A stretch of DNA of 64,000 bases from an uncultured virus (IMG/VR IMGVR_UViG_3300046742_000152) (Duplodnaviria > Heunggongvirae > Uroviricota > Caudoviricetes). Made by a program: the position numbers and the translations under genes. The notes under the pieces were generated by a model. That model worked only from the letters and a program-made list of their open reading frames with translations. It was not told the DNA's origin and did not search any database. Positions 1 through 25,940 of this stretch are shown here, piece after piece. Numbering within the stretch: position 1 is the first letter of the stretch; every line of letters begins with the position of its first letter. The stretch is from the IMG/VR virus record IMGVR_UViG_3300046742_000152, positions 1-64,000 of that record. One strand, 5' to 3'.

Positions 1-134
1 TTTTACGCTTTTAACGCTTTATTTATGATTGATAGAAATACATTAATATATTTTTCACACATTGTCAAGAATTATTTTATGTGTGTTTTATTATATTAAA
101 TTTTTTGTATAATTATTTGGGTGTAATTATTATT

Positions 135-335
135 ATGAATATGGAGATATATAATTACATTGTAAGAGACTTATTAAGCTCTAGTGCGTTTTATTGGGTG
201 AATGGAACTCCCGAAAAAAGATTAATGAGGATAAAGGAATATGCTTGGCATCAATATAACAATATGAGTGACACTCAATTTGAAATATTATTAAGAAAAA
301 TAGAAATAAACAAAAAAATTAATAATAATAAATAA
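135..335 (+). CDS. hypothetical protein (start moved to ATG 135)
   Basis: ORF 81..335; ATG 135 lies 14 nt after a GTGTAA motif. Confidence 0.6.
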   Translation: MNMEIYNYIVRDLLSSSAFYWVNGTPEKRLMRIKEYAWHQYNNMSDTQFEILLRKIEINKKINNNK

Positions 336-336
336 T

Positions 337-420
337 ATGACTTTTTTAGAATTGTGGGATGTTTTTTTATTAACAATAATATTTGTTTTAATTATTTTTA
401 TTTTTTATCCTAATAAGTAA
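337..420 (+). CDS. small membrane peptide (27 aa, MTFLELWDVFLLTIIFVLIIFIFYPNK)
   Basis: Manually translated; directly follows 135..335; single hydrophobic segment. Confidence 0.45.
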   Translation: MTFLELWDVFLLTIIFVLIIFIFYPNK

Positions 421-429
421 TTATTTGCG

Positions 430-645
430 TTAATCTTCTTTTGGTTTAAATATTGGAAAGAGACATATTAAATTACTCTCTATTTTTTTCTCTTCAGTTA
501 TTTCGCCCATTATTGCTACCGCCCTTGCACCTTCCTTAACATCAATCCAATACATTTCTTTGATGATTTTTGAAGACATTATTTCGCTGAAACTCGTTTC
601 CATGTGATTTTCTACGAAATTTACACTTTGATCTTCGATGCTCAT
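430..645 (-). CDS. hypothetical protein
   Basis: 71-aa ORF on the dominant coding strand. Confidence 0.6.
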   Translation of the reverse strand: MSIEDQSVNFVENHMETSFSEIMSSKIIKEMYWIDVKEGARAVAIMGEITEEKKIESNLICLFPIFKPKED

Positions 646-1062
646 TTTATTTGTAATAATTTATTATTTAATTAATTTATTTATTTAATTGTAAAATTTT
701 TTATTATTGTTTATTTTTTGTTATTTTCAAGTGAAAAAAAACCATATTTATTTCGTACATATTTTAAATTTTTTTCTTTTGAATTATTTTGTTTATCTTT
801 TATTTTTTTATTTAATAAATAATTTTTTATAATTGCCAATACTTTTATTCTCATCTTATTTTTATATAATTAATTTGCGTACTCCTCAATCATTATATTT
901 ATAATCTATTACATTTCAATATATTTATTATTTCTTGTGTGATTTATTATATTATATCTTATATTCTCTCTCTATATATATTGTATTATGTTATATATAC
1001 TAATGAATATTGATATATAAAGCAAGCACAAAGTAAAAATTATTTGAAATTATCATTTTCTT

Positions 1063-1203
1063 GTGTAAATTCATAGTTGTAAGGTTTATTTGAAAATAAA
1101 TTAGATCACGCTTTTATGTGGTTACGGATCGGGTGATGAATTCTGACCAAGGACAAAGAGAAACCTCGCCACAATACCCATAGGAGAGAAAGGATTACCT
1201 ATT
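1063..1203 (+). ncRNA. candidate structured non-coding RNA
   Basis: GC-enriched island in AT-rich intergenic DNA; nested G-U-containing stems on the + strand; begins at a GTGTAA motif with no ORF behind it. Confidence 0.3.
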
Positions 1204-1339
1204 TATTAGAAGAATTTTTATCTTGAATATATTTTACCATATCTTGATACTCTTCTTCGGAAATATCATCTTCTCCTATTAATTCATTTAGCTCGTCAAT
1301 ATTTGATACATCTTCTAATGTTTGAATTGTTTTACTCAT
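1199..1339 (-). CDS. small acidic hypothetical protein (46 aa)
   Basis: Manually translated MSKTIQTLEDVSNIDELNELIGEDDISEEEYQDMVKYIQDKNSSNK. Confidence 0.55.
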   Translation of the reverse strand: MSKTIQTLEDVSNIDELNELIGEDDISEEEYQDMVKYIQDKNSSNK

Positions 1340-1383
1340 ATACATATATTATATATTACAAGTAATAAAATTCTACAAAAATA

Positions 1384-2538
1384 TCACTCGACCACAATTT
1401 GTTGACCAAGAGGCAAGTCAAGAAAATCAAGAACATAACCTAACTCTTCGACAATACTTTTTACTCCAACATATCCAATTTTATTGGATTTACAAATTCT
1501 TAAATCTGCTATATCTTTAATTGTTGGAAAAATTCCTAGATTTAATTTATTAGTAACATACTTGCGAACGCTCTCCACAACTGAATCAACTCTATCTTCA
1601 TAACTATCTAGCAAATGAGGATTATTAGCTAATAAATCTTTAGGATTATTAAGATAATGATCGGCAACTCTATCTGCCATCTCTTCATCAACAAAATCAG
1701 AATCATCATCGTCATAATCGCAGTCTTCATCATCATCTGATCCATAAATGGGCTTATTAGCCTCGTAGACAGGTTTATTTAACTCTTTTCTTGTGTCGCT
1801 AATATCAGAGATCACCTTGTACTTAGAAACCCTAAGTTTTTGAAAGTCACAATCAGTTGGTACAGATACTGCATCAGCAGGATCAAACTCCACAAGAAGC
1901 AATCTTCCATCTTCTCCTGCCCAACTATCAGCATAATCGAATGAACCAACATGAAGACCAAAAGAACAATGATTATCCTTATTGTCATCTACGCATCTAC
2001 GAGCAACTTCAATTGTTGCACCAACCTCATTGAGAATTTGGTGACGATCATTAGTTTTCCCTTGCAATACAATTGTATCGGCATTACCTGTTGTACTCCA
2101 ATAATCAGATTGCACACCTTTGTACCCCAAAACCTTACCTTCGGGAGTATTCGCAAGAGACTTATAACTCATAAAAGAATAAAGTTCATTTACTGAATTT
2201 GCACTTGGATTAGCTTGCAAGCGAGTGATAAAGTTGGTAAGAGGAGCAGAATCTTTCATTCCTGCACGAAGCATATCAAGTAATTTGTCAACAACAACAC
2301 CATGCAAGCGATGACCTTTGTAATAAACGACTTCATCCTTAACTTCAATATCACCTTCAACAAAATTTTCGACTGCCTTGGCAACATCAATAAGATCACC
2401 GAGATCATCATATCTAGCATCAAGAATAGCTTTCTTGGCGAGTTGGAAATTTACATGATCTTTGCGAATTGTGTGTGGCTTGCCTTCCCAAAAGATTGTG
2501 AGTGAATTTTCTGTTAATTGATATGGTACTTGATTCAT
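1384..2538 (-). CDS. rIIB: rIIB-like protein
   Basis: LQANPS..SVNELYSF, LGYKGV, CSFGLHVGS..YA, DPADAVSVPTD..KLRV..Y motifs; downstream of rIIA. Confidence 0.9.
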   Translation of the reverse strand: MNQVPYQLTENSLTIFWEGKPHTIRKDHVNFQLAKKAILDARYDDLGDLIDVAKAVENFVEGDIEVKDEVVYYKGHRLHGVVVDKLLDMLRAGMKDSAPLTNFITRLQANPSANSVNELYSFMSYKSLANTPEGKVLGYKGVQSDYWSTTGNADTIVLQGKTNDRHQILNEVGATIEVARRCVDDNKDNHCSFGLHVGSFDYADSWAGEDGRLLLVEFDPADAVSVPTDCDFQKLRVSKYKVISDISDTRKELNKPVYEANKPIYGSDDDEDCDYDDDDSDFVDEEMADRVADHYLNNPKDLLANNPHLLDSYEDRVDSVVESVRKYVTNKLNLGIFPTIKDIADLRICKSNKIGYVGVKSIVEELGYVLDFLDLPLGQQIVVE

Positions 2539-2573
2539 AATTTTATTCTCCTATTTTTGTTTAATATATCTAT

Positions 2574-2602
2574 ATCTTAAATTGTTTTGTATATATTGTC
2601 AA
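2574..2602 (-). promoter_or_regulatory. sigma70-type promoter for rIIB (TTGACA-17-TAAGAT), leadered with AGGAG SD
   Basis: Read on the reverse complement. Confidence 0.75.
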
Positions 2603-2623
2603 GAATTATTTTTAAAAATTTGA

Positions 2624-2652
2624 GGGAGAGGAGCAATTACGCTCTCTCTCCC
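2624..2652 (-). terminator. hairpin over the rIIA stop codon (terminator or processing stem)
   Basis: GGGAGAG-A-GAGC GTAATT GCTC-CTCTCCC followed by TCAAATTTTT on the minus strand. Confidence 0.5.
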
Positions 2653-4934: not shown

Positions 4935-4969
4935 TTTTGTTTTCCTTTTTTGTGTGTGAGATTATCATA

Positions 4970-5380: not shown

Positions 5381-8300
5381 TTGTTCAAGTTTCTACATTC
5401 TCTTAACAATTCTTTTATTTTAAACCAACTTTTTTCGGGTGGAAATAATTTTTTATTTGCTTCAGAATCGTGTGATCTATATAAATCATCTGCAAATTCC
5501 TCTATCTTGGCTAATTTAATTAACATTATTTCTTGTGGAGTTAATTTTTCATATAATTCTTCATTAGATGCAAATATACTCACTTTTTTATTTAATGGAG
5601 TTACTATTTCCATGTTATGCTACCCCCTTAGCTAATCTTTTGGCTTGAATTTGTTTCAATCTACGATCTGCCTCTCTTTGTTGGGCGAGAATACCTTCGG
5701 TTGCTTCGTTATAACCTAAGAACCTACGAGTAAAAGCAAATGGGTCTTTGCCTTTCACTTTGTTCATTACTGCGGTTGCTCTTGCACATTTTGCTATGTT
5801 TGCCATAATTTTTTTCTCCTATTTTGAATGTTATGATTACATCCTAGCAAATGATTTTCGGGTTGTCAAACTTTTTTTACTTGGATTACTTTATCTTGCT
5901 TTTCGGTCAATACTTCAATGCTATCTTGCTTTTGTTTTCTAGCAATTCGAGACGCTTTTCTTATCGCTATTGCTTCCCCTCGATATTCATCAACGATTTT
6001 GCCGAAATTTAAAACTTGAAAAAATTCTTTAAAGTTAGAATGTTGTATTATCTGTATCATGATTAATTTAATCCTATATTATTTGGTTGATTATTATTTA
6101 GCGTATTATTTGTTTCAATTTCAGAACAAATCTTATCTTGCGTGAAATCATTTATATAATAATTATTTGTAAAAATATCTTTTACATTTAAACCATTATT
6201 TGTTATTTGGTTTAGTTCTTTTTTTACATCATTTATCATGCCTTCAACTATTTCAAACGCTTGTTCCTTATTTGTCTTCTCACCTGTTTGTATATTATTA
6301 AGAACTTGATCGTCATCCAAGTCGTGATCCATGCGTTGCATCTCACTACGCATAAATAAGATTGCATCCAATTTTTCGTTTATTTCTCTTGCTAGATTCA
6401 TGATGTTATACTAAAATACGCATGATGATAAGTCAATGCTTTTTTTGTTTTTTATTCAGAAAGTTCTTTTGCTACTCTAAGTAACTGATTTAAGCATCCC
6501 ACTTCTAATATGTGCATTTGCTCTTGCTCTTGTGTTGTAATCGGAAAATTGTTAATCTCTAAAATTTTTTCTTCAATTAATTGTATTACTTCTTTCATTT
6601 TTCTTATAATTTTTATTTTAACAATTTATTAAATAAATTAATTTGAATATTAAAATTTATTTTAATAAAGAATTAATTTAATCTTCTAAATATTTTTATT
6701 TAATTCCCCCATTTATATTTTCTAATCTATTATGCTCTACTTCTCTAAGTTTACTTGTTTTAATTTCTTCTTCAATTAAATTATGTATATTAGTTGTATC
6801 TTCTATTGCAGTACCGAAATACATATCAATTAAATCTGCCACTTGATCAACACACTCATATAAGCGATATTGATCTCCACCATTTTGTGGAACTCGAAAC
6901 TTAATTTCTTCTGTTATGTAATTCATGTCGATGTTTTCTCCTTTTGTAAACATATAGTTATTGATATGTCGATACTATAACTCTTTTCTGCTCCATGTGT
7001 CAACAACTAAATTCATTTGCTCTGATAAAGGTGCATCTTCACTAATTGGCTTGAGATGAACGCTAATCTTATCTTCGTAATCAGTATCATCAGTTGGTAA
7101 AAAGTGAAGTGTTGACATTTCTCCATCGAGAATAGCTTGAATATCGCTTGGAGTCAAGCCTATTTCTACATTATACTCTTTCGCAGTATTCATTTAAATA
7201 AATTCCTTCGTTAATTAATTCGTCAGCAGTAAACTCCCTTGGCTCTTCCCACTCTTCATCTTGCAACCAATAAGTGCCTGTAAAAGAGTCGTATTCTAAC
7301 TTATTTAAGTTTTCTTCTATATAATCGTCTATATAATCGTCTGTGTAATTATTCATAATTTTAATTCCTTTGTTGTTGTTATATCTAATACCCCCCAATT
7401 CATTTGAGTATCGACATTAAAACCTAGATCAATTAACTTGTCAACGATAGAATGCCTATAATTCCAAATATCCCTGTCCCAATTATAATGATCACAAGTA
7501 GAGAGAGTATTTGAGCCATATTTATTTACCATCTCAACTTGTTTAGAGATAACTTTATTTAATTTTTCTTTTAATTCTTTCATGCGATCTCCAATCTATA
7601 ATAACCATTCTCGATTAATTCAGTATCAGTTAAAGATTCAAGACCATTATAATCTTCATAAACTTCACGAATATATTTGAGAGATTTGCCTACATAAAAC
7701 GAAGGAGAATATTCATCTGAATCTCTTCCATTGGATTTATCTGCTTCAATAATATAATCTAGCATTTCTTGTGGCTCAATATTCCACTTCATTTGAACAT
7801 GAAGATTTTTTTCTCTAAAGTGATCTCTTGTTTCTTTCATTGAATATATTCCTTTTCTTGTAAATATTCTTTAAAATTAATTTTAAACTCTGCCAACCAA
7901 TTAGGACATTCCTCTGCAATCTCTGCTACTATTTGCCAAGGATCACCTAAATAATTGTCAATGTCAACATCATAATAGAATTTTATTTGAGCTTCTAAGT
8001 CCATGTCTTTTGTCCACTCTTCGTATGTTGGTAATTTTTCCATGTCGTTATTCAAGTTGATTTTGCATGATATGTCAAGCATTTTGTTGTGTTTTCGATA
8101 AAAAAATAGTATTTATATAGTTAAACAATTATTTTGCATCTTTTATCATGCATTATTGCAATCTACCCCCTGCATCTAATACATTGCGAAGACAACTTGA
8201 TTGCCCTGCTCTTGAAGTAACTTTCTTGGCATGAGCAAACGCACTAGGATCATTGAATGTTTGCATGACCATAGTTGATTTGTCGAGATAAACATTAAGA

Positions 8301-8685
8301 CCCTTCTTGGGAATCGAGTTTGCTATCTTCTCAGCATTGGCGATTGATTGATTTATGCTTTCTAGGAATGCTTCTGTTGTATTCATAACAAAAATACTAA
8401 AATAGTTTTTTATTTATGTCAACACTATTTTGAATATTTTTTAATTTCGTTGTTTTTTATGTCTAATTCGCTCTCTATAAGTTCTGCAACATTTTCACTA
8501 ACAGATATTTCGTGATCTTTGGATAGAGTATTTAATAATTGAACTAAATTTTTTCCTGTGTTATCTCTACCTTCATTCCCTGCTAGAAATAAATTATCTT
8601 TATTCATTAAAATAAGATCATCTATTTTAATTAAGATGTGATTCATGGCATCTTCACTACCCCTTATTCCTAATTGTATTTTCAT
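5377..8685 (-). other. run of small early-type hypothetical CDSs: 5377-5613, 5615-5806, 5866-6060, 6063-6401, 6452-6598, 6696-6953, 6975-7193, 7171-7356, 7353-7583, 7580-7840, 7837-8043, 8153-8386, 8425-8685
   Basis: Tightly tiled minus-strand ORFs with ATGA overlaps and upstream TTGACA promoters. Confidence 0.75.
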
Positions 8686-8824
8686 AGTTTACTTTAAATA
8701 TTTGCATGGAGAGTATCCATGACTAACTCCGATATAGTAGTAATCGAATTACTTTCTAGTCTTTTTTAGTTGATCAAGCAGGGAGTGTTCTTTTGGAGAG
8801 AACAAAAAGAGGTGAACCTAAAAG

Positions 8825-8899
8825 TGGACGCATGGATCAGAATCGAACTGACGAATAAGAGTTTTGCAGACTCCTGCCTTACCACTTGGCTACCATGCG
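8825..8899 (-). tRNA. tRNA-Cys(GCA)
   Basis: CGCATGG TA GCC AAGTGGTAA GGC A GGAGT CT GCA AA ACTCT TATTC GTCAG TTCGATT CTGAT CCATGCG T CCA; U73 discriminator; encoded CCA. Confidence 0.95.
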
Positions 8900-8916
8900 A
8901 ATTAAATTGTTTTGTA

Positions 8917-9237
8917 TTAATATTTAATATTAACTCCCCCTTGGACATAATTTGGTTCTTTCTTTATCCATTCGGGTAATTTTAATCTTTCTACTTTAAC
9001 ATATTCTGATAAATAAAATTTAAATGCTTCTTGATCATTATTTTCTTCTGCCCTCCTTATTTCTTCTAAATATTCTTTTTCTAATTTTTTATTATCGGCA
9101 TCTTTTGAGAGAACTGAATCTATCTCTGCTTGCATCTCTGATGAACGAGAGACTTTTGTATCTGTTGGATTTAAATTAGAGGAATGATTGCATCCTGTCA
9201 ATACCAAAATAATTAATAAATTATTAATCGTCCTCAT
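8917..9237 (-). CDS. putative lipoprotein
   Basis: MRTINNLLIILVLTG-C lipobox. Confidence 0.7.
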   Translation of the reverse strand: MRTINNLLIILVLTGCNHSSNLNPTDTKVSRSSEMQAEIDSVLSKDADNKKLEKEYLEEIRRAEENNDQEAFKFYLSEYVKVERLKLPEWIKKEPNYVQGGVNIKY

Positions 9238-12200: not shown

Positions 12201-15200
12201 AATAAATGAACGATGCCCCAACCTAACTCTCTGTCTAATGGAACAGGTTGACCTTCTTTTTCTTCAGCGGGTTTAAAGTCATGCCATAAAATAGATAACA
12301 AGTGATCCCTTTGTTTTTCTAGTAACTGATAATCAATGTTCATAAGTCTCTATTTAAGTTATCAAGTTGTGCTTCATGTTTAAATTCACTACCCCATTCA
12401 TCAACAGATTTATCAGATAAATCACAAGCGATTTCTATATTGCTAACATTATGCCATGCTTCATCTGCATTAACACTACCATCGGGATTTCGACTTGGTT
12501 TTTTAAATTTTTTATTACAATTATCTTCTATATGATTGGAAATAATTAATATGTCATCAGCAATACAAGCTAGACGATGCCTAAGTTCAAAATTCTCTTG
12601 AAGCAATCTATCTATATTATTTTTAGATATACTTTTTTCTTCTTGCAATAGTTTCATGTGATCCATTGTCAATTTATATTCCTCTTCCGTTAGGTAAGAA
12701 TAACTATCTAAAAATTCTTGTTTAGTTAATCTATTAAAATCTACCATTTTTTCTTCGTCATCGCAAAAATGTCTAGCAGGGATGTTGCAAACATAATGTC
12801 CTTTTTTGGCTCTCTCCGCAAGAGTCATGTTTACTGAATCTTCGTAAGTTGGATAATCGTCTCCTATAATTTCTTTCATGCCTTTACCTTATATAAGTTA
12901 TTTATTATTGTCAAGCATTTATTTTTCGGGTGGAAATCTACCATAGTTCCCCATGCCATCGTAATCCATAGAGTCAGCATTAATTTCACTCATTATTTTG
13001 TTCATTTGTTTTTTGGATGAACGCATATTTTGTTTGCGATAAAACCAATTAATTATTGTGCGAATTATTTTCATGCTTATTCTCCTCTGATATATGCACC
13101 AAATTCATCATCATCCATATGCGATGTTCCACCAAGAGGATTGCAAGAAACAATATCCGCGTTCTCTTTCCATGCCTTACTAATTTCCCAATCACTATCT
13201 AATTGAGAGAAAGCCTTATTTTGGGCATCTTCGGGCGAATCTGCTACTATCTCAAAAGTACGATATGTCGTACTGCTCATTTCTACTTCGTATATTTTCT
13301 TTGTCATGGCTAAAATAGTAATATAGCTACTCTAGCTTGTCAAGCGTTTTTTTAAACTCTTCATAAGTTATAGCTTCGCTTTTTTCAAAATCTTCGCATG
13401 GTTTTGCGAATTTTATTTTATCTATTTCTAATATTTCTTTGCCATCAATAATGTGTTTATTTACATCGTGAATCATTAACTCTAAAGTATCAAGTAAATC
13501 TTTTGGGTCTTCACCAACAATTTCGGGTTCTTCGCTATGAGCGAAAATTTCTCCATCATCATTATACATAACTTCGTAAAGACCATAAGTATTTTTGTCT
13601 TTAATTATTCTATAATTCCACATTGATTATTCCTCGTACATATAAATTGGAGTAAATTCACCGACATAAGCACCCTCAATATTAAAATGAAAATACTCTA
13701 TCGCCTCTTCATTCGTCATGCCTTCGTTCATTAGTCCACCAATTATTTGGTCGGCAGAGTAAACAACTCTGCCGTCACTAGAATAACCCATGATAGCATG
13801 ATCGTGACCATCAGCGAATAATGCTTCGGGATTATATTCAGCAATCGTTTCCTTTAATTGTTCGACTCGTTCAGATCGAATTTTTCTAATTTTATCTATT
13901 GTATCCATGTTTTTGTTGTCGTTGCAGACGCAATTTTTATCTCTGCAAGCCATATTACGAATAATTATCTAGCAACCAATTCATGTAATTTTTAAGTTCA
14001 TAAAAAAATCTTTCAGAATTATCTTGTTTAAACCAAAACGATAAATTCTCAATTAAATCACCTGTCTGATCTGAAACTCTTTGTAACTCTTCAATAGAAA
14101 AGTTACTATTGTTAATAATATCTTCAAGAATAAGTTTATTTGCAGTTACGAGTGCTTCTATTTGTTTTTCATTCATGGGTTTCACCTACATAATCTCCGC
14201 TTGATAAAATAATGTCTTCAACTAATTGCATGGTTTCATTTTGCATGAAAGGTTCTAACTTGTCAAGCAATTTATTAGCAATCATTTCTTGAGCAGATTC
14301 AGATTGCAAATTAATTTGACAAGTACCTGTGTTGGCACAAGCTATTTCCTTTAAAGTATTAAGTATTATCTCTTTCATTGTTTATAGATATTTCAAGGGA
14401 TTTAACAAATTGATTCAATGTCTCTAACCTGCTTTCGGCATCATCTAATAATGATAGAGATTCTTCCGCATTTTTATAAAAATCAGTAGTTGAATGATCT
14501 CCGATACCAATTGGTATTTCCCCTAATAATTTCAAGCTTAATTTTGCTTTAGCTATATCAGCTTCCGCTGAAGTTTTTAACATATTATATAATTCTTTAT
14601 TCATTTCATTATTTTATTTTTCAATTTTATTTCTACACTCCCAATTTGATTTTACCATTTCTCTTTGCCTTCTAAGTTCATTGCCTTGATTTTTTAATAT
14701 TGCAATAGCTTTGTTTTCATTCATGTCACCATAAAGAACTTTTTGAACGCAAACTTGCACTTCTCTTGCGGTAACTCGATAGGGGAAGTTTCTATAAAGA
14801 AACTTATAAAACTTGCCACTTATTTTGCCGTGCTTTAGTTTTTTATGCAAGAATCTTCTGTAATTGCAGTTTTTAGTATTATGTATTGGTTTCATGATTT
14901 AATATATTTATTTGCCATTTTCGCAATCTTTATGCCATTCGGCTACATATTTATTTGAACCCCAAAACCCACACACGCAAGGTTTATTATCTTTTTGATT
15001 TGCTCCATCTTGATAACCCTTGTCGTAAGATTTATTTGCATTTTTACTTAATATTTTTTCAAATTTTTGAGAAAGATATTCTTGTGCATCAGCAAAACCT
15101 TTATCATAACCCCTTTGATAAGAGATTGATTCTGTTATTTCATCATTCATTTTCGTTTACCTTTGTTTTCAAATTTTCTCTTCCAATATTTTCCACAATC

Positions 15201-15877
15201 TCTTAATTGAGAATTTGCATCTCTAATATATTCTAATGTATCATTGATTAATTGTACTTGTGCGTCTAATGTTTGCGATTTGTTTTGATTTTTTATTTGA
15301 TCTAAAACTTCTTGAATAAAATTAATATACGGACAAGTATCGGGGGGTATTTCGGGTTCTTTATTATTTGGAAAAAGACTATTCACATCATGCCTTTGAT
15401 TTACGCAAAATGAATTATACGACTATTATCCTCTTTATCGTAATCATGAAATTCATTATGGAAATAAGGTATGGAAATTGGTTCATCTTTCTTGGAGAAT
15501 TTGGAATCTAAAACATTTTCCACAATTTTTTTACAAATAGATTTTTTTGTATAAGTTTTTTTAGAGAAAACCCATGATCCATTTTCAAACTTCATATCAC
15601 CATTATTTAATAATTCATTAAGTTCTTCAATAATTCCTCGATAAATATTGTGAGCGATTATAATTCCCACTTGCTTAAAATTAAATAAATCACTAAGCGA
15701 ATTATTAAAACAAGACTCATATTTAAAAAGAGTATCTTCAATTGCATTATTAAGCTCTAAAGTTTCATCACTAGCACTAAAGTAAAGTTCTTGAAACCAA
15801 GGATCATCTAATAAAAAGAGGATATGTTTAGATAATTCTTCTTTGAATTTATTTTTCTGTTTTCCTATTTCATTCAT
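9224..15877 (-). other. run of small early-type hypothetical CDSs: 9224-9451, 9895-10077, 10223-10528, 10528-11145, 11180-11350, 11350-11565, 11569-11772, 11759-11920, 11913-12158, 12155-12343, 12340-12879, 12919-13074, 13077-13307, 13327-13623, 13627-13953, 13955-14185, 14169-14378, 14359-14604, 14614-14895, 14908-15150, 15147-15386, 15401-15877
   Basis: Tiled minus-strand ORFs; several carry recurrent phage motifs (MWNYRII, ALFADGHDHAIMG, IGIGDHS, DYDGMGNYGRFP, PPDTCPYI). Confidence 0.75.
9454..9882 (-). CDS. conserved phage protein (MGLDM... family)
   Basis: MGLDM start, WRKHN.LQGWM, GFFWG, C-terminal VFYSCWY. Confidence 0.75.
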   Translation of the reverse strand: MGLDMFAFARPPRKRNSDDDIGICDWRKHNRLQGWMEDLWEAKGRPNWKPSEEDNDLSGDFNCVELQLTRADLYDLQDDIVNFNLPEANGFFWGSDSYFWRDENDKPYPENEYYYKEQDLNFVAEAHKMLDKGYRVFYSCWY

Positions 15878-16017
15878 ATTTTTTATATTTCCATACTTTT
15901 GCGTCTTTGTCAAGATTGCAACTCAAACCCATTATTCTATTGTATAGAGGATATAGCCAAGCAAAGCAATTATAATAAAATAATTTACTAATTAAGTCTC
16001 CAATGTGATATAATATT

Positions 16018-16308
16018 TTACTTAGGATCAACCTCATTAAATTTAGCTTTGATTGCTTCCTCGCAAAGTTCATTAAATGTAATACCTTTTTCGTGTGCAA
16101 CCATCATATATTTGAGCAATTGTTCGTCATCAAATTCTAGCTCCACGCTTTCATATTTGACTTTACGAATTAAAACCGAACCATTTTTCTCTTCAAATTT
16201 TAAATCATCACCTTCCTTCCAACCCAATCTTTCAAGAACATCGTTAGGGATAGTAAAAAACAAATCACCATCAGAGGTTTCTTTTAATATCACTTCTTTT
16301 TCAATCAT
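16018..16308 (-). CDS. AbrB/MazE-family DNA-binding protein
   Basis: FTIPNDVLERLGWKEGDDLKF..GSVLIRK swapped-hairpin motif. Confidence 0.8.
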   Translation of the reverse strand: MIEKEVILKETSDGDLFFTIPNDVLERLGWKEGDDLKFEEKNGSVLIRKVKYESVELEFDDEQLLKYMMVAHEKGITFNELCEEAIKAKFNEVDPK

Positions 16309-17769
16309 TGTGATCTCGATCTTATTGAAGAGATGATACATTTTGCACCATGCTCGTTTTCTGTCATTAATGCCTCGCCATTCGTAAGCATAATTTTATA
16401 CATCATTTTACCCATGTGCATTCTTTCTTTTACATAAACAACTTGCTTAGGATTTATATGATATTTTTCTTGATTAGCGTCTTCTATTTGAATCATAATT
16501 TTATTCAGTCATATTTTTATATAAATTATCTTGAAAATCTTGAACTTTGCGATGGTGTAACGCTTCATCCCAACCTTTGGTGTAACCATCATTGTATCTG
16601 CTATCTTTTAAATGACCTTGCGTATTATCATTTCTTTCTTCTTCAGTAAACCATTGATAGTCTGTATTGAACATATCATCTACATTGCTTGGGTGAAATC
16701 CTGCATTGACGAGCAAACCTTTAAATTGTTCTACTAATTCATTAAGATTTGTGCCGTCAAATGATTCGTCCGAATCAATACTATAAGTTTTTTTGTGCAA
16801 TGTAAGTGATAGTTTCATAATTAGTTCCAATCAAAGTCTATATTATAACCCACCGCTCTACGCTTGTCAAGTTTTTTCGATGGACAAGTTACTTCAATGC
16901 AAATATCTCTGCAAAGATGATCATCTTCTAAGATTGGAGAGCCTTCTTTATCCATCTCTTCTACCCAATCTATATTGAGATCGTTAGACGCAAAGAGATC
17001 ATATTCTGATCTGTCATCTAACCACATAATCGGGGTAGACCAATTGTCTGTATCATCTTCTTGCCTGATCGTCAACCAACTTTCTGAATAAGCATTTGAG
17101 ATTTCATTTGTATTTGAAATATGTTTTGATGGCAAACGATTTCGATTATATTGCTCTACCAACCAACTTTCTGACCTATTTTGCGTATTCATATTCATGT
17201 TCCATTAATTCTTTAATTTGATCTCTTGCATTTGCCCAATAAAAACTTTTCATCTCATCGGTTTGACCATATTGCTCTGCTTGAATCATTTTCATGCCAT
17301 AATCATGCCATACCTTGCATATTTTGTCAATATTTTTATCATCGGGTTTTACACTATAATGATTCCAACATCTTTCTCCATCAGCAGTTTCTGTCTCTAT
17401 CCATTCAGCAGGAAAACCTTGGGAGAAATACATTAAATTATTGTCTTTAGCGAACTCAAGAGCAAGAGATACAAAACTATCTTCTACTTCATGCGACTCA
17501 TAAAGATCAGCATCTTCATACCAAGAATCATAAACACTAATCTCAAATTGAAAAGTATCTATAATTGCAACATATTCTTGCTCAAACTTTTGTCGATTGT
17601 CGTCACCATGTTCTAATATGTCGAGAGTATGAGCTTTGCCATACCATTTCATGTGTCTCATGACTCTACTATTGTAGATGATCTTTTGAAACTCTTCAAG
17701 GAGTTCCGCATTAGACTTGTCCGTAAGGGGCGTTCTTCTAAAACTAACTGATAAACCTTCTCCGCTCAT
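16305..17769 (-). other. hypothetical CDSs 16305-16496, 16501-16818, 16821-17198, 17176-17769 (also 15870-16037)
   Basis: Tiled minus-strand ORFs. Confidence 0.7.
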
Positions 17770-17803
17770 AATAACAACAGATTAAAGCAAGCAAACAATT
17801 ATG

Positions 17804-18106
17804 TCAAGCTATTAAATCAGATTCTTTTACGAAAACACCATCAACCATCTTGCCTTTACGATCTTTTATATCCTCATAAGCAACCTTGAGACAATCTTCA
17901 AGGGAGACTTGATTTCTTTCACAAATGTTGATCATTACTACTAGCATATCTCCAATGTCGTCAAGAATAGGTTTTTCTTTGCATACAGAATCTGAAAGTT
18001 CCCCAAGTTCTTGTAATAACTTTAAAGTTTGAGTTTTATCGTCAGACCCATCAATGAGGTTACGATCTTTGTGCCATTGTATTATTTTATCTATTGTATT
18101 TTGCAT
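17804..18106 (-). CDS. mazG: MazG-like nucleotide pyrophosphohydrolase
   Basis: QTLKLLQELGEL..DDIGDMLV..LEDCLKVAYEDIKDRKGKMVDGVFVKE. Confidence 0.9.
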   Translation of the reverse strand: MQNTIDKIIQWHKDRNLIDGSDDKTQTLKLLQELGELSDSVCKEKPILDDIGDMLVVMINICERNQVSLEDCLKVAYEDIKDRKGKMVDGVFVKESDLIA

Positions 18107-18107
18107 A

Positions 18108-18239
18108 TTAAAATGAATATATTAAAAAATAAATTATAAAAAAAAGAATTGAAAGCTCAATAATAAGATAATCATTATAAGTAATAATATTAGCCAATCT
18201 GTTATACGCATTATTTATTAATTTCCAAAAAAATTGCAC
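18108..18239 (-). CDS. small membrane protein (43 aa, GTG start)
   Basis: Manually translated; GTG lies 14 nt after GTGTAA; hydrophobic C-terminus. Confidence 0.45.
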   Translation of the reverse strand: MQFFWKLINNAYNRLANIITYNDYLIIELSILFFIIYFLIYSF

Positions 18240-18247
18240 AAAATATA

Positions 18248-18637
18248 TTACACAAAATCTTGAAAAACTATTTCTCTTTTTCCATCTTTATTATAATTAA
18301 ATAAATATTGTGTTCTATCTGTATCTATTTGATGATAAGGATTGTCTTTAGTTGGTGGATCAACCGCATAGCAAGCAATGTCCCATGACCATTCACTTGG
18401 GTCACCATATTTAAACTCACCATCCTCGGTAAATTCTCCAACATCATCACCACAATAAATGTTGTAGTCTACAAAAGTGCCATCTTCTAATTTGTAACTA
18501 TTCCAATAGTCAAAGTTATCTCCTTCAGTTTCAACTTCGGGATTAAGTTCGACTTTTTTAATATGAGTCATCGCTAGGTCAATAATTGCTAACGCAACTT
18601 CTCTAGGAGCTTGCCAAGGTTTTTCTAATTCAATCAT
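18248..18637 (-). CDS. acidic hypothetical protein
   Basis: 129-aa ORF. Confidence 0.75.
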   Translation of the reverse strand: MIELEKPWQAPREVALAIIDLAMTHIKKVELNPEVETEGDNFDYWNSYKLEDGTFVDYNIYCGDDVGEFTEDGEFKYGDPSEWSWDIACYAVDPPTKDNPYHQIDTDRTQYLFNYNKDGKREIVFQDFV

Positions 18638-18642
18638 TATTT

Positions 18643-18900
18643 TTATTTTTTTAATGTTCCATCTCCGTACAGACTTTGGACTATAGGGTCATTATTTGTA
18701 TTGCATTTGTTTCTATTGGCTTCATATTCTTGCCACATCATTTCACAACGAGTTTTATGTAGCTGATTCATGCCAATGAGCATATTTAATAATTCATCTT
18801 CTGTATATTTTCGAGGTGCATCTCCGATAGCATAGATGAGTGCATCAATGTCATCTTGAATGTTGGACATATTGCCCATTGCTTCTTCTAATTTATTCAT
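18643..18900 (-). CDS. hypothetical protein
   Basis: 85-aa ORF. Confidence 0.7.
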   Translation of the reverse strand: MNKLEEAMGNMSNIQDDIDALIYAIGDAPRKYTEDELLNMLIGMNQLHKTRCEMMWQEYEANRNKCNTNNDPIVQSLYGDGTLKK

Positions 18901-19384
18901 GGTATCTAACTATATATGTTTGAAAGCGTCTGTCAACTAAAATATAATTTAACATTGAGAAAATAATTCCCCAACTGCCTCCCGCAAGTCCACAAGAAAT
19001 CATCCAAGGTAAACCAAAAGTAGAAGTTGTACCATCGTGTTCATCTTGCCATTCAATATGATTTGCGACATTCTCTAAAGTTAAGTAAAAACCTTCATAA
19101 TCAACTGCTCTTTGTCCACCTATTCTGTCTTGAGTGTACATATTGTATATACCTTTACTTTGGGTAGCATCAGTCCAAGCAAAACTAAAGCTCCCCAAGC
19201 CTACTTGGTCTTCGTACATTGCATGACGATCAGCTTCATATGCCATAGGGTATCGGTCTTTTATTTGCCTAGCGATACCTGCACCCATGATATTTTGCGT
19301 GTTGCACGAATGGGCTATGAAATTTATATCATTAGGAAAGTCAAGAAGATTACCTTCTATTATTTTTATATTACTTTTTTGCAT
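18893..19384 (-). CDS. macrodomain (ADP-ribose binding/hydrolase) protein
   Basis: IEGNLL, IAHSCN..MGAGIA, YNMYTQ, PWMISCGLAGGSW. Confidence 0.9.
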   Translation of the reverse strand: MQKSNIKIIEGNLLDFPNDINFIAHSCNTQNIMGAGIARQIKDRYPMAYEADRHAMYEDQVGLGSFSFAWTDATQSKGIYNMYTQDRIGGQRAVDYEGFYLTLENVANHIEWQDEHDGTTSTFGLPWMISCGLAGGSWGIIFSMLNYILVDRRFQTYIVRYHE

Positions 19385-19793
19385 TAGCTCTTTTTTCTCT
19401 AAGAAAATCTGAAGCAATTCCTTGCTCTTTATAATGCGAGTTGCTATCGCTAGGATAGTGTTTTGTTTCAGTTTTAAATCCTCTTGAAGGAGCGTATTTA
19501 GGCTTTAATGAGGCTATTAATTTTCTTCCTGCTGTGCTATAAGGGTTAGGTATAACAACATTTGGTTTTTTGGGATGAATCATATATCCCTCTTTAATTA
19601 AATCAAGCATTGGATGACCGATAGGCAATACCCATTGTCCGTATTCATTTTTAATAGCCCCAAAAGTATCCTTGGTAACTTTACAAGGATTGTAAACTTC
19701 ACCTTCGACAAAGCCAAATTTTTCATCTTTGTGGTTGCCAAAGCAAAAACTGAAACTAATAAGCAAAACTATGTTTAGTATATTTTTCATCAT
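19371..19793 (-). CDS. hypothetical exported protein
   Basis: Signal-like N-terminus; leaderless promoter upstream. Confidence 0.65.
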   Translation of the reverse strand: MMKNILNIVLLISFSFCFGNHKDEKFGFVEGEVYNPCKVTKDTFGAIKNEYGQWVLPIGHPMLDLIKEGYMIHPKKPNVVIPNPYSTAGRKLIASLKPKYAPSRGFKTETKHYPSDSNSHYKEQGIASDFLREKRANAKK

Positions 19794-19817
19794 GGTATCA
19801 ACTTAAATCAAAAAAAA

Positions 19818-20369
19818 TTAAATGTCAAGCCTTAAAGGTATGATTGGCTTGCCATTTTCATCTTTATCTAGCACTCTCACAATCTTTGCTTTGTTTGAAT
19901 CAGCAACAAAGATATTCGGATGGTCATCTGCATTAAGTATTCTTTTTAGATTATTTGGATTTATTTCAACACACTCTAACAAATCTTTGCCATTATGCTT
20001 GTGTAGATCATAAGATTTTGGGTATAATCCTTCTTCTTGATTTAAGTAGCAAATAATTCTTCCATATTTTAATCGAGCTTTACTTTTATAAGATATATAG
20101 TTGCCTATTTCAAAAGATTTCTTCTCAAAAAGTTTTTGACGCGGGACATAATACTTAGTATTATCCCTTTTAATTTTAAATACTTTATGCTGACCAAAAA
20201 GATTCTCTATCGGTAGAAGAGTTCTAGGATGAACTAAAATACATTCAAGGGTTGGATTTGTTTTGCTATCGTCAAGAATAGTTACTATCTGACCAACTCG
20301 CCTTTTTATTTTTAAAGCTCTCTCTTTAATGTGATCGCCAACTTCTAATTTATTTAAATTTTTTTTCAT
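19818..20369 (-). CDS. hypothetical protein with two similar SH3/KOW-like halves
   Basis: LEVGDHI..GQIV..LECILVHPRTL vs FEIGNYI..GRII..LECVEINPNNL. Confidence 0.7.
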   Translation of the reverse strand: MKKNLNKLEVGDHIKERALKIKRRVGQIVTILDDSKTNPTLECILVHPRTLLPIENLFGQHKVFKIKRDNTKYYVPRQKLFEKKSFEIGNYISYKSKARLKYGRIICYLNQEEGLYPKSYDLHKHNGKDLLECVEINPNNLKRILNADDHPNIFVADSNKAKIVRVLDKDENGKPIIPLRLDI

Positions 20370-21370
20370 GCCATTTGTTCTTGTAAAAGTTTAATTGCTT
20401 TATCTTTTTGTTTAACTTCACACTCCCATTTAACTTGCTCATCGGGGTCAATGGCAATAATAGGTGGAATATGACCGAGGGCAAAGTAATCTGCATGAGA
20501 GCGAGGTTTACTTGGGTTACCTTCCGACCAATGGAAGACAGGAGCAATGAAATTAGAAACAATATCTTCACTTTGCTTCTGATTGACCCATGTATAAGCA
20601 CATCTTTCTGCTTGATAATTTATACTTTCAACCTCTGAGGGGTTGCAAAAATCATGTAAATTATCGTAACAAACAGGAATGCTTACTCCCCACATATTAA
20701 ATAAATAATCACTAAATTTAATGCAGTTATCTACATTGAAGAAGCCTTTATCTTCGTTTTCGATAGTTAATCGTTTGTAAACACCTGCATCACACATAGA
20801 AAGATTACGAAAAAATCTAGTAGCAACTATCTCTAAGGTTTCATCTATTTTTGGAGTATAGTTGACATGAATATTCATCGGAGCAGTATGATCTTGAGGT
20901 AAGCCGACCATATCAAGGACACTTGCTTGAAAATTAAGTTCATTTATCGTGCGATTAACTTTTTCTCTATCGGGAGATGCGAGAACATTAAATTGATCGG
21001 GGTGAGAACCAATTGATATATCAAACTTTTTAGCAATTAAACCTACTAGCTCTAAGCCTTTTTCTATTCTTGCTTTGTGAGGCAAATCTCCAAGAGAAAT
21101 GTCCAAAGTTTGGTCGGTAAGGAGAGGAAAAAGAGCAGAACTAAGACGATAATGCCCAATATTTGAGGAATTGCAATGATTGACAATATATTCAGTAACA
21201 ACAACATTGTGCAAAATTCTTTCAGATAATTGATTGACCGCTTCATCTCTACCTTCTTGGTTACACAAATCATTGAAGCGTTTGCGAGTCATTGTGCGAA
21301 AAGAATATTTTTTCTTGTCCTTATCTTTTAACTCTTCACTAATGCAAGTTAAACCTAGTATAGTATCCAT
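20366..21370 (-). CDS. uvsE: UV damage endonuclease UvsE/UvdE
   Basis: YRLSSALFP, SHPDQFNVLAS, NIHV, RLTIENED, YDNLH, FHWSE, RSHADY, ECEVKQKDKA. Confidence 0.92.
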   Translation of the reverse strand: MDTILGLTCISEELKDKDKKKYSFRTMTRKRFNDLCNQEGRDEAVNQLSERILHNVVVTEYIVNHCNSSNIGHYRLSSALFPLLTDQTLDISLGDLPHKARIEKGLELVGLIAKKFDISIGSHPDQFNVLASPDREKVNRTINELNFQASVLDMVGLPQDHTAPMNIHVNYTPKIDETLEIVATRFFRNLSMCDAGVYKRLTIENEDKGFFNVDNCIKFSDYLFNMWGVSIPVCYDNLHDFCNPSEVESINYQAERCAYTWVNQKQSEDIVSNFIAPVFHWSEGNPSKPRSHADYFALGHIPPIIAIDPDEQVKWECEVKQKDKAIKLLQEQMA

Positions 21371-21388
21371 GTCTGAAATATAGTATAT

Positions 21389-21577
21389 TTAGGATTGTGA
21401 GTCAAGATATTTTTTTAAAATATTTAAATACTTTTCAACATCTTTAATTTCATTGGATATTTTATCTAAATTATTTTTATTAACTTTATTTACCGCATGA
21501 ATTAATTCAAGAGATAATTCATTGAGTTCTTCCACTAATTTTAGAAAATTATGTTGAGTTTCCGAGTTTAGTTTCAT
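21389..21577 (-). CDS. small MazG-like/hypothetical protein
   Basis: LKLVEELNEL..EIKDV helical pattern. Confidence 0.5.
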   Translation of the reverse strand: MKLNSETQHNFLKLVEELNELSLELIHAVNKVNKNNLDKISNEIKDVEKYLNILKKYLDSQS

Positions 21578-21579
21578 AT

Positions 21580-22512
21580 TTAAAAAGTTTTGCAAAGGTC
21601 AATGCCTTGACCTGTTATTTTTCTCTTTCCATCTATCTCAATTAAATTTTTATTTAATAAATAAAGTTCATGATCTCTCTGTAGGGCAGTTTTACTCATA
21701 CCAATCTTAGCCGCAAGTCCTGTGAGAGTTGCTGAACCACAATTATTTAGAGCTTGAAGAATTTGTTTTTCAGTATGAGTAATGCCAAAGGGAAGAATTC
21801 CAACTTTGTCGCACAAATCATCAAAATCTTCATTACTGAAGTAGGAACTTTCTTTTGCACCGCAATATAATTGTATTTCTTTAGAGCGTTTTACTGCACT
21901 ACGAGCATTACCTCTAATGGTCGAAGCAACCCTATCCTCAACACCATCCACGAACTGAATTTCGGGAATACAAAGCTGAACGATGGCAGATAAATCGTCT
22001 TGTGAATAAGGCTCAAAATCTACAGCAGTCATTCTATCTTTTAATGGGGGGAAAATTTTGTCAGTTTCAGTTGTTGCAAAAATAAAAGTTTGTTGCTTAA
22101 AATTAAATTCAAATGTCATTTCATTCCACTCGAAAGTTTTTCTACTATTAGTTTCGGCGTTAAAAATTGTTAAAAAAGCCATTGTAAGATCATGAGGCAA
22201 GGCATGACACTCATCAAATAAAATTGTAATTTCATTATCAGCAATAAGAGGTAGAAAAATTTGCTCAAAAAATTGTTCATTATTTTTAATGGTAGAGCAA
22301 TTTAATTCAAGAAACGATCTTCTGTCGCCATCTCTATTATAAAGATTCTTGGCGAAAGATTTGGCGAATTCAGTTTTACCCAAACCTTTAGCACCCGACA
22401 TTAATAGAAATGGGCATTGAGAGGTTTTGTGAAAAGCATCAAGATAGAAAGATAGCTTTTTCTTAACTGCATTCTGACCTACAAGATGAGAAAAGTAATT
22501 ATTCATTATCAA
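21580..22512 (-). CDS. ruvB: RuvB-like Holliday junction branch-migration AAA+ ATPase
   Basis: VGQ, G.KGLGKT, ILFDECH, FATT, PLKDR, RGNAR, C-terminal winged helix. Confidence 0.85.
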   Translation of the reverse strand: MIMNNYFSHLVGQNAVKKKLSFYLDAFHKTSQCPFLLMSGAKGLGKTEFAKSFAKNLYNRDGDRRSFLELNCSTIKNNEQFFEQIFLPLIADNEITILFDECHALPHDLTMAFLTIFNAETNSRKTFEWNEMTFEFNFKQQTFIFATTETDKIFPPLKDRMTAVDFEPYSQDDLSAIVQLCIPEIQFVDGVEDRVASTIRGNARSAVKRSKEIQLYCGAKESSYFSNEDFDDLCDKVGILPFGITHTEKQILQALNNCGSATLTGLAAKIGMSKTALQRDHELYLLNKNLIEIDGKRKITGQGIDLCKTF

Positions 22513-22732
22513 ATTTGGTTAAAGTATATTCAATTTTAGAGTCAATGTCTTTAGTATCCACTTCTTTTGGCGAATTGTCAACAGAAATATCATCTTCCGT
22601 TTCATTTCCCATTAAAACCTGCAACCACTTTTTAGAAACAGGGATTTTGGTTTTGCATCCAACCCAATCGCTTAGGTCTTCATAACTAATTTCTGTATAA
22701 GGGCTATGTCCTTTTGGTCTTCCTCTTTTCAT
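22499..22732 (-). CDS. hypothetical protein (GRPKG motif)
   Basis: 77-aa ORF. Confidence 0.7.
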   Translation of the reverse strand: MKRGRPKGHSPYTEISYEDLSDWVGCKTKIPVSKKWLQVLMGNETEDDISVDNSPKEVDTKDIDSKIEYTLTKFDNE

Positions 22733-22766
22733 AATAAATTAATATTATAATAAGAAATTAAGAATG

Positions 22767-23369
22767 TCAATAGTGTTTTGTATTTTCTCTGATTTGAGAA
22801 GCTTCTCTTTGTTGAGTGAATTGAAATAAGGACTCCAAGTCTTTATATGATATAAATTTTCTACGAACTTTTGATTGCCAACCCGATTTTTGTCTTAAAT
22901 TATTTTTTGTAAGCAAAGTATAGTGAGCTTCTTTATGTAAGCCACATCCGAAAGTTAGACAAAGCGTTAAGATTTTTTTTGTAATTCTAATTGGATTATT
23001 AATATTGCAGTCACGAAGTATCAAGGTGCGATCATCTATAGCGTCTTCTGCATAGGATCGTTGCTTTAGCCACTTTTTTTTATTCCATATTTTTTTTCCA
23101 TTATTTGGATTAATCGGTTTCGATGGTAAATTTTCAACAGGCTCATAACTTGGCATTTTGGCATGATAAAGAGTATGGCAACTTCCGCAAAGCGTAATTA
23201 AGTCACTCAATTTTTCATTACCAATGTTTTCATAAGTGCGATGGTGAACATGAAGTTCTGAGCTTGTACCACAAATAACGCAACGACATCCGTCTCTTTT
23301 TTTAACACGCTCTCTTTTAGTCTTCCATTCGGAAGATTTTAAATATTTTTTGTATTCGATTTTATTGAT
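22767..23369 (-). CDS. HNH endonuclease; N-terminus lacks an ATG/GTG/TTG start (ATC at 23369)
   Basis: Frame extends upstream: YLKSSEWKTKRERVKKRDGCRCVICG..LHVHHRTY..DLITLCGSCH. Confidence 0.75.
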   Translation of the reverse strand: MNKIEYKKYLKSSEWKTKRERVKKRDGCRCVICGTSSELHVHHRTYENIGNEKLSDLITLCGSCHTLYHAKMPSYEPVENLPSKPINPNNGKKIWNKKKWLKQRSYAEDAIDDRTLILRDCNINNPIRITKKILTLCLTFGCGLHKEAHYTLLTKNNLRQKSGWQSKVRRKFISYKDLESLFQFTQQREASQIRENTKHY

Positions 23370-23403
23370 AGTGATGCTAGTATATTATACTCATAAAGCA
23401 TTG

Positions 23404-23808
23404 TCAAGAGTAATTTATTTTATCCCATCTATTATCATAATTTAATCTAAAACTACCTGCGTATTTTTCTCCCCAAGAACACTCATTTGGGGCAAATAAA
23501 CTCATGAAATATTTTTGATTATCTTTTTTGTACAAATGATATATATTTCCAATGACAGGTTTCATTCTCATCTCTGCATTAAAAATGATTTCATTCCATT
23601 GCACATTTTCAGCAAGCTCCTCAAATTCTTTTTTTAATTTATTAAATAATTCTTCGTAATGCTTATTTGCTGAATGTACTGCACCAATTTTCCAACCACC
23701 AAGACTATGATCGGGTTTGATGACAGGGGCAGATAAATTACTTGCATATGGCAAGGCATAAGCATTTGGAACATAATTGTCTGGTAATTCTTTTTTACTC
23801 ATTACCAA
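23404..23808 (-). CDS. DUF2452-like protein
   Basis: LPYASNLSAP.I, KPVIGNIYHLY, SLFAPNE, GSFRL..D.RW. Confidence 0.7.
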   Translation of the reverse strand: MVMSKKELPDNYVPNAYALPYASNLSAPVIKPDHSLGGWKIGAVHSANKHYEELFNKLKKEFEELAENVQWNEIIFNAEMRMKPVIGNIYHLYKKDNQKYFMSLFAPNECSWGEKYAGSFRLNYDNRWDKINYS

Positions 23809-23993
23809 TTTTTAATTATATTTGCTATTATAAATAAACAAGTCACCATATTTAGAACGACAATAATTGTTCTTAGGATTAAACTAAATCTAGCTTCCCG
23901 CAAAGAAAGAATTGGTATATCAGGTTGATCTTTGTCCGTTTTGCCGACTCGATGATCTAAAGTTCTAGCCCAAATTAACCAAAATTTTTTCAT
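23802..23993 (-). CDS. small membrane protein
   Basis: W.IWA..L, TCLFIIANII..W phage membrane-protein pattern. Confidence 0.7.
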   Translation of the reverse strand: MKKFWLIWARTLDHRVGKTDKDQPDIPILSLREARFSLILRTIIVVLNMVTCLFIIANIIKNW

Positions 23994-24026
23994 TATTATG
24001 CGTGTTACACATAAAAAATATCTAAA

Positions 24027-25931: not shown

Positions 25932-25940
25932 AATTTTAAA

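Follow-up and report, generated by a model that had tools for sequence, protein, structure and literature searches.

How can some 24 kb of a phage genome stay free of nearly every short word that restriction enzymes recognize, when the rest of the same genome carries such words at normal density? The question is raised by the uncultured virus record IMGVR_UViG_3300046742_000152 (Caudoviricetes), of which positions 1 to 64,000 constitute the window analysed here. The segment concerned, referred to below as the site-free core, occupies the first 23,780 positions and contains the rIIA and rIIB homologues of the phage. A sequence-only reading of the window had proposed that this segment enters the cell first and has been purged of CCAG/CTGG. 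The best explanation of the results described below is that selection removed essentially every short restriction-recognized word from this early block.

The source contig is 73,871 bp long and represents a fragment of a ~200-kb marine siphovirus-like phage; nearly all of its genes lie on the minus strand. A search of viral contigs with rIIA returned 25 viral loci, five of which are in contigs of 194–214 kb rated complete. Coordinates are window positions, and negative values lie beyond position 1 and were read in contig G006.

Depletion of short words in the core

Expected counts were calculated by a maximal-order Markov model. Between positions 1 and 24000, CCAG/CTGG occurs once against 48.0 expected, and ACGT, a word not mentioned in the earlier reading, does not occur at all against 26.9 expected. 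GCGC, GGCC and CCGG are likewise absent (15.4, 11.7 and 7.3 expected), and CGCG is found twice (9.7 expected). In 1–23780 there is no CCAG/CTGG: none of 337 CCA trinucleotides is followed by G, and none of 181 TGG trinucleotides is preceded by C. The tetranucleotide count thus shows strong depletion in place of a normal CCAG frequency. Longer and degenerate words are affected too. ACNGT, CASTG, GCWGC, GGWCC, CGWCG, RCATGY, AGATCT, TCTAGA, GATATC, CTGCAG and others are absent from 1–24000, and the core is without most 6-bp palindromes that contain G or C. For a panel of 29 word classes, not one site falls between -121 and +23781, compared with about 15 per kb elsewhere; about 350 sites would be expected in 24 kb. 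The depletion is beyond chance and independent of composition.

Outside the core, CCAG/CTGG and GCGC return to normal. CCAG/CTGG in the background from 38 kb on is present 176 times (168.9 expected), and GCGC in 27001–64000 is present 49 times (55.4 expected). The first occurrences listed in the sequence-only reading are all exact (CTGG at 23781, GCGC at 27591, GGCC at 35845); the first CCAG lies at 25067 and the first ACGT at 25224. That reading also found no CCGG in the window, and this absence extends to the whole 73,871-bp contig. CCTG/CAGG, which it regarded as allowed, occurs in the block at normal frequency.

Restriction-type character of the purged words

When the cores of six genomes are pooled (145 kb), the strongest depletion among 4-mers is that of CCGG (0 observed, 46 expected), GGCC (1, 71), CCAG/CTGG (11, 304) and ACGT (7, 146). 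Interrupted palindromes behave similarly: ACSGT (0 observed, 19 expected), ACWGT (4, 98), CASTG (1, 56), GCWGC (2, 63), GGWCC (3, 36) and CGWCG (7, 42). An observed/expected ratio of 0.2 or less is reached by 19 of the 41 testable 6-bp palindromes in the pooled cores, compared with 3 of 61 in the background, and by 11 of 1725 non-palindromic 6-mers in the pooled cores. AT-only palindromes are untouched in the cores. The asymmetric exceptions among the purged words are CCAG/CTGG and a few others, and CCAG/CTGG is neutral elsewhere in the genomes (observed/expected 0.99).

The word set is not specific to the genome in which it was found. If it is defined on five relatives alone (G001–G005) and then applied to the phage of the window (G000), the core of the latter has 2 of the 5-mers versus 47.8 expected and 3 of the 6-mers versus 52.1 expected, while its background has 172 versus 160.5 and 93 versus 105.2, respectively. 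The earlier proposal of a single asymmetric 4-mer target is therefore not tenable: CCAG is one of about 30 purged words, most of them palindromes, and so the target is not a single nuclease. An asymmetric CCAG specificity as such has a precedent in the CCAG-specific methyltransferase of Helicobacter pylori A45, described in PMC10689673.

Two words are also avoided outside the block. CCGG is missing genome-wide in seven of nine genomes (this contig, G001–G003, G005, G011 and G012), where about 90–140 copies would be expected per complete genome, and CGATCG is observed 0 times versus 32 expected in the pooled backgrounds. CCGG and CGATCG form a second, genome-wide tier of avoidance that is distinct from the block-limited tier.

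Purging by synonymous codon choice

The coding sequences of the block were shuffled among synonymous codons with proteins and codon usage kept (57 minus-strand open reading frames, ORFs; 300 shuffles). Such shuffles yield 47.8 ± 5.5 CCAG/CTGG, 37.2 ACGT, 14.8 GCGC, 10.5 GGCC and 14.0 CGCG, whereas the real counts are 0, 0, 0, 0 and 2, values reached by none of the 300 shuffles. The control words GATC, TGCA and CCTG/CAGG are normal in this test, and the shuffling of 40 ORFs beyond 38 kb is unremarkable apart from CCGG and GGCC.

The codons themselves reveal how the words are avoided. Before a codon starting with G, proline in the block is never written CCA (0 of 32 cases); the figure is 81 of 160 in other contexts and, outside the block, 44 of 97. 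Tryptophan is preceded by a codon ending in C in 0 of 101 cases in the block, compared with 23 of 104 elsewhere, and NCT is followed by GGN in 0 of 313 cases in the block, compared with 67 of 567 elsewhere. The codon choices cited in the sequence-only reading (CCC-GAN and TCG-GGT) are real, and its claim of active avoidance is correct for the minus strand, which carries the genes. The purge is produced by context-dependent synonymous codon choice limited to the early block. Markov counts, synonymous shuffles and codon context thus bear out the view that the segment has been restriction-proofed by selection at the DNA level.

Conservation of the block and variation of the word list

The block is a property of the phage family. 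In six genomes oriented on rIIA it is found at the same position, as it is in three distant relatives with 47–57% rIIA identity, so that the block, for which the sequence-only reading had left conservation of the boundary to be looked for in related phages, keeps its place relative to rIIA. With a panel of 25 word classes, the longest site-free run in nine of nine genomes reaches from 2.3–4 kb past the rIIA stop to 17–23 kb upstream. The run is uninterrupted over 20.8–27.2 kb in five of the nine and contains one to three stray sites in the other four; the mean spacing of panel sites elsewhere is 81–133 bp. In each of the 21 viral loci that extend 3 kb or more upstream of rIIA, CCAG/CTGG occurs 0–1 times versus 5–30 expected, down to 45% rIIA identity. 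CCAG/CTGG is also missing from 64 of 65 metagenome rIIA loci (210,673 nt in total), all 8 copies being in one locus. This exceptional locus, L142, carries them within 2 kb and is a partial match of 73% identity; it may belong to a lineage without the purge or be a chimeric contig.

The purge is conserved across the family while the word list changes by lineage. GCGC is not purged in G001, G004, G011, G012 and G013, ACGT is not purged in G011, and CGCG also differs between lineages. GGCC and CCGG are missing from the block almost as universally as CCAG/CTGG, and the absence of CCGG is limited to the block in G004 (139 copies genome-wide) and G013 (56 copies). Lists that differ by lineage are what a changing set of host enzymes would be expected to leave. 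Of the five complete relatives, only G001, whose block is not purged of GCGC, encodes a C5 DNA methyltransferase, and none encodes an N4/N6 DNA methyltransferase. The G001 enzyme (G001:74285–75376, L030) is encoded close to the block but not in it, some 34 kb upstream of rIIA; an attempt to assign its specificity gave no assignment.

The individual genes of the block are mosaic. The closest relative changes from gene to gene, and in the comparison with G005 rIIB is 95.5% identical and the helicase 37%. On these protein comparisons, the block therefore exchanges cassettes between lineages and still keeps the purge. The proteins of the early block are more conserved than DnaE, primase, helicase and UvsX, whereas phage early genes usually show the opposite. 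Recent acquisition of the block, which the sequence-only reading named as an argument against itself, is partly touched by this higher conservation; the purge is nevertheless present in every lineage examined, and is thus maintained and not inherited by accident.

A seeming second purged island at G001:145000–165000 (L034–L035) was rejected. It is a low-complexity tandem-repeat array of ~20 kb in which 6.8% of 12-mers are distinct, 10 of 10 ORFs are without a Pfam match and the GC content is 44–46%. The array reads as giant Leu/Ser/Cys/Phe-rich 'ORFs' and is either real or an assembly artefact.

Promoter-like sites and boundaries of the core

The core coincides with the early-promoter region, as the sequence-only reading had suggested: 23 of 25 coding-strand matches to TTGACA-N16-18-TANNNT fall between -4567 and +23407. 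These promoter-like sites are interspersed among about 55 small ORFs without known families, and the same clustering is seen in eight other genomes. The control region of 40–60 kb has one perfect minus-strand -35 box among the sites listed. Followed in the direction of transcription, the core starts shortly after the most upstream site of the cluster (Table 1), which is 374 bp from the first CTGG, and it extends to just past rIIB. The best explanation of these consensus matches is that the block would be read from about 20 host-type sigma70 promoters.

The core is flanked on each side by 10–12 kb with 3–13 panel sites per kb; beyond 34 kb the density is ~15 per kb. With these shoulders the block measures 37 kb instead of 24 kb, and avoidance is mostly confined to ~12–18% of the genome. 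In the right shoulder, CGWCG reappears at 24496, ACNGT at 24507, CASTG at 24618 and AGATCT at 24687. The staggered onset of different motifs noticed in the earlier reading is real; because many words reappear together at 23.8–24.7 kb, it is mostly a graded shoulder seen through motifs of unequal density.

Table 1. Location of the site-free core, its right shoulder and the genes and signals mentioned in the text
Feature	Positions	Strand	Basis and remarks
Site-free core	1..23780	none	Word panel, Markov counts and shuffles; extends 121 bp past position 1 in G006
Right (upstream) shoulder	23781..34000	none	Panel sites 4 rising to ~10 per kb
rIIB homologue, 384 amino acids	1384..2538	-	phrog_609, E 6.8e-57; last large core gene
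Terminator-like hairpin, weak, at rIIB end	1387..1410	-	Consensus match only
rIIA homologue, 765 amino acids	2637..4934	-	phrog_612, E 8e-93; anchor of all comparisons
Cluster of promoter-like sites with perfect TTGACA -35 box	5841..23407	-	Consensus matches
tRNA-Cys(GCA), inside core	8825..8899	-	tRNA gene call
AbrB/MazE-type DNA-binding domain protein	16018..16341	-	Family scans
Macro-domain protein	18893..19417	-	E 9.3e-8, below curated cut-off; phrog_335
UvdE-type UV-damage endonuclease homologue	20366..21370	-	Family scans
RuvB/clamp-loader-like AAA+ ATPase	21580..22512	-	Family scans
Most upstream sigma70-type promoter-like site of the cluster, TTGACA-17-TATACT	23379..23407	-	Consensus match
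tRNA-Thr(TGT)	29165..29240	-	tRNA gene call
Sigma-70 region-2-like protein, in shoulder outside core	30674..31213	-	Family scans

Contig ends and strain mosaicism

Position 1 is an assembly break and not a genome end: G006 is 99.97% identical over 1–3334 and continues for 22 kb. G003 is a circularly permuted form of G002, and in G004 and G005 the contig ends meet across the block. No contig with two rIIA copies was found among the scanned metagenome contigs.

Contigs often end near rIIA (10 of the 25 viral loci within 4 kb, 12 within 5 kb), and these ends were considered as termini and rejected: their positions differ, some are inside rIIA, and the region is a strain mosaic. Assembled contigs of four public runs over 1–20000 are heavily fragmented, with small ORFs gained and lost. 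Together with the scattered break positions, this indicates that the breaks reflect strain mosaicism. The contig ends at rIIA and the fragmented contigs elsewhere point to high strain diversity in the block. An assignment of the packaging type from the large terminase was dropped, its best matches being too distant (23–27% identical).

Source phage and gene content

Family scans covered 137 of 137 ORFs with PHROGs, 86 of 137 with Pfam and 48 of 61 block ORFs with NCBIfam. The 73.9-kb contig has no structural genes. Beyond the early block it encodes sugar-metabolism genes, a sigma-like factor, a Clp/Lon-like ATPase, a DnaE-type polymerase, a primase, a helicase and UvsX; MazG is also encoded on the contig. 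In the relative G002 (105 of 246 ORFs scanned), a lambda-J-like gene and other siphovirus tail genes, a large terminase, ribonucleotide reductase, PhoH and Hsp20 were recognized. The window is thus not T5-like; it belongs to a ~200-kb siphovirus-like phage with rIIA/rIIB and DnaE, and by these genes and by its size the phage is unrelated to T5. Megablast of 1–24000 against isolated phages gave no match, and protein searches returned distant relatives only. Seawater metagenomes of 17 studies contain this DNA.

Within the block, rIIA and rIIB are adjacent, as in the T4-type rII locus. The macro-domain protein, possibly a counter-defence factor, shows weak similarity to the N-terminal part of the DarG ADP-ribosyl glycohydrolase. 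An Atlas look-up of a conserved 205-amino-acid protein gave no usable lead (best score 0.87). The sigma-70 region-2-like protein of the right shoulder may be the phage's own factor for later transcription. The same shoulder holds QueF-like and S-adenosylmethionine-decarboxylase-like genes (24995–25420 and 27925–28440, respectively); a homologue of the QueF-like gene is found in G001 only, among five relatives.

Further along the contig, an 818-amino-acid Clp/Lon-like double AAA+ 'ATP-dependent protease' (54336–56792; phrog_4871, E 1e-222) is encoded directly upstream of the DnaE polymerase gene, and the same protein is present in G002. G002:151600–156500 contains a 2755-amino-acid ORF with many tandem copies of a ~264-bp unit, and the G003 contig breaks inside homologous repeats.

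Comparison with known systems

The closest parallel to the block is the first-step-transfer DNA of T5 and BF23. According to PMC10644984, restriction affects these phages only through sites located in the first-step-transfer DNA, and how the later DNA is protected is left unexplained there. What is shared is a discrete, host-promoter-driven early block free of sites that are common elsewhere; in T5 and BF23, restriction acts only on sites in this block and a general mechanism protects the later DNA (PMC10644984; PMC12455610). The T5 genes dmp, A1 and A2 are likewise transcribed toward one side, which is the T5 genome end, and 0 of 8 tested six-cutter words occur in T5 1–10219. The differences are considerable, however. 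There is no purge of 4-mers in T5 (lowest observed/expected 0.46), whereas 4- and 5-bp words are purged here. The T5 block is 10 kb long, compared with 24 kb here (37 kb with shoulders). The T5 block sits in a long terminal repeat and is followed by a non-coding, repeat-rich injection-stop region of ~1 kb (9140–10149), while the present block has no long non-coding gap and its position is known from assembled contigs.

A second parallel is the T7-like Murciavirus, whose sensitivity, according to PMC12455610, is set by Type I motifs in the early-injected DNA only; the authors propose there that selection by restriction systems operates at a sub-genomic scale. The phage in question is a ~40-kb podovirus with known polar entry and a single Type I motif is at issue, in contrast to the dozens of Type II-like words purged here in a jumbo siphovirus-like genome. 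Full-text literature searches brought up no jumbo or marine phage for which a block of this kind has been described.

The early region also resembles T4-type phages in having an rII locus beside many small early ORFs with their own early promoters, and in its gene-by-gene mosaicism. Arbiol et al. (2010) are said to have described hyperplastic early-gene regions with promoter-flanked mobile cassettes in these phages. T4-type DNA is protected by modified cytosine, and we know of no site-free zone described in T4-type phages. Rusinov et al. (2018) reportedly found genome-wide avoidance of restriction sites and palindromes in phages, with Type II palindromes depleted by selection. CCGG and CGATCG behave in this way across whole genomes here. 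The greater part of the avoidance is, in contrast, confined to the block, and whole-genome statistics would dilute or miss it.

Probable early exposure of the block and alternative explanations

Based on the above, we estimate at roughly 60% the probability that the core is early, first-exposed DNA under restriction avoidance, as is the first-step-transfer DNA of T5. Three features indicate that the selective agent is host restriction: the bias towards palindromes, the differences in word lists between lineages and the use of synonymous changes. As long as restriction by the host remains active, it would be this block that lies exposed and has to stay intact. The products of the block would then render the rest of the genome, with its normal density of sites, insensitive to restriction. 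This rest probably enters or becomes accessible later, like T5 DNA after first-step transfer, and the words purged genome-wide (CCGG, CGATCG) would be those that the countermeasure fails to cover. Given early exposure, staged entry seems the likelier mechanism.

Several observations weigh against this account. A single fixed entering end predicts one sharp edge, but depleted shoulders of 10–12 kb are found on both sides of the core. Relatives give circular maps, the contig start is an assembly break and no physical end has been placed; there is no terminal repeat between the ends of the 73,871-bp contig, and the 15 records of relatives with an end class given are marked 'linear' or 'provirus'. 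A long non-coding 'injection stop' is also lacking, the largest inter-ORF gap between -22 and +40 kb being 345 bp. No A1, A2 or dmp family was found among the ORFs scanned, although distant homologues may escape such scans, and no known anti-restriction family was found among the block ORFs with PHROGs, Pfam and NCBIfam. Finally, the block proteins have a median identity to relatives of 63–78% (37–49 of 61 ORFs matched), compared with 46–64% for proteins beyond 36 kb (24–41 of 50 ORFs matched). Because block proteins are more conserved than replication proteins, the block has a partly separate history.

Some of these observations would be accommodated if the whole genome entered at once, with the rest shielded from the start and the early block left uncovered, an alternative that we consider unlikely. 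The shield could be a co-injected DNA-coating protein or a DNA modification limited to certain sequences or regions; since the block must stay bare for host RNA polymerase, it alone would have to avoid sites. The core is indeed bounded by transcription units (the first early promoter and the end of rIIB) with no visible terminus, and shoulders on both sides are more easily reconciled with a graded expression class than with a single entering end. There are also many sugar- and nucleotide-modifying genes just outside the block, namely glycosyltransferases, epimerases and the QueF-like gene. Modification at the level of the nucleotide pool, however, would protect the block too, and we know of no region-specific DNA modification. 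The purge of CCGG throughout seven of nine genomes indicates that the bulk DNA is not generally immune, and the scarcity of methyltransferases in the complete relatives (C5 in one of five, N4/N6 in none) does not favour such a shield. It is rather improbable that the CCAG/CTGG gap, in turn, reflects self-immunity to a nuclease that the phage itself carries or makes early, one that would destroy host DNA while only the CCAG-free block is inside the cell and leave the variable palindromes to be explained by host enzymes. What speaks for it is that CCAG/CTGG, alone among the words, is purged in all lineages, even at 45% rIIA identity, although host restriction systems normally differ between strains; it is asymmetric, unlike the palindromes, and neutral in the rest of the genome. 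In T5, moreover, host DNA is degraded in the pause after first-step transfer (A1 annotation, NC_005859). Yet family scans found no candidate sequence-specific nuclease in the block: its UvdE is an endonuclease for damaged DNA, and the HNH genes are not conserved and are located elsewhere. GGCC and CCGG come close to the universality of CCAG/CTGG in the block, and a host system would suffice, given that a bacterial CCAG-specific methyltransferase exists (PMC10689673).

In yet another view, the block is a pool of horizontally exchanged cassettes whose composition is a functionless legacy of other genomes. Greater similarity between genomes of block proteins than of replication proteins, the shift of the closest relative by gene, and small ORFs gained and lost in contigs of other samples would all be in line with this view. 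It is nonetheless largely refuted and very improbable: no relative is purged genome-wide of CCAG, ACGT or GGCC and could have served as donor, the persistence of the purge at 45% rIIA identity is too long for an unselected legacy, and the word lists inside the block differ between lineages.

Significance

The block is an unusually clean natural case in which selection by restriction enzymes acts on one portion of a phage genome and not on all of it. It would imply a general anti-restriction countermeasure in abundant marine phages, encoded in or timed by the block. A bolder possibility, which is tentative and on balance doubtful, is that this marine ~200-kb family delivers or exposes a ~24-kb unit first, in a T5-like way but by unrelated means, that the CCAG/CTGG gap marks a conserved nuclease, and that the unit encodes general protection. 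If so, the nuclease would be either the enzyme with which the phage destroys host DNA or a defence common to all hosts, and the protection would cover ~175 kb of site-rich DNA against dozens of restriction enzymes. More broadly, site-free islands, a signal that whole-genome avoidance statistics miss, could guide the search in uncultured phages for counter-defence genes and for early or leading regions, and could reveal the restriction repertoire of their hosts.

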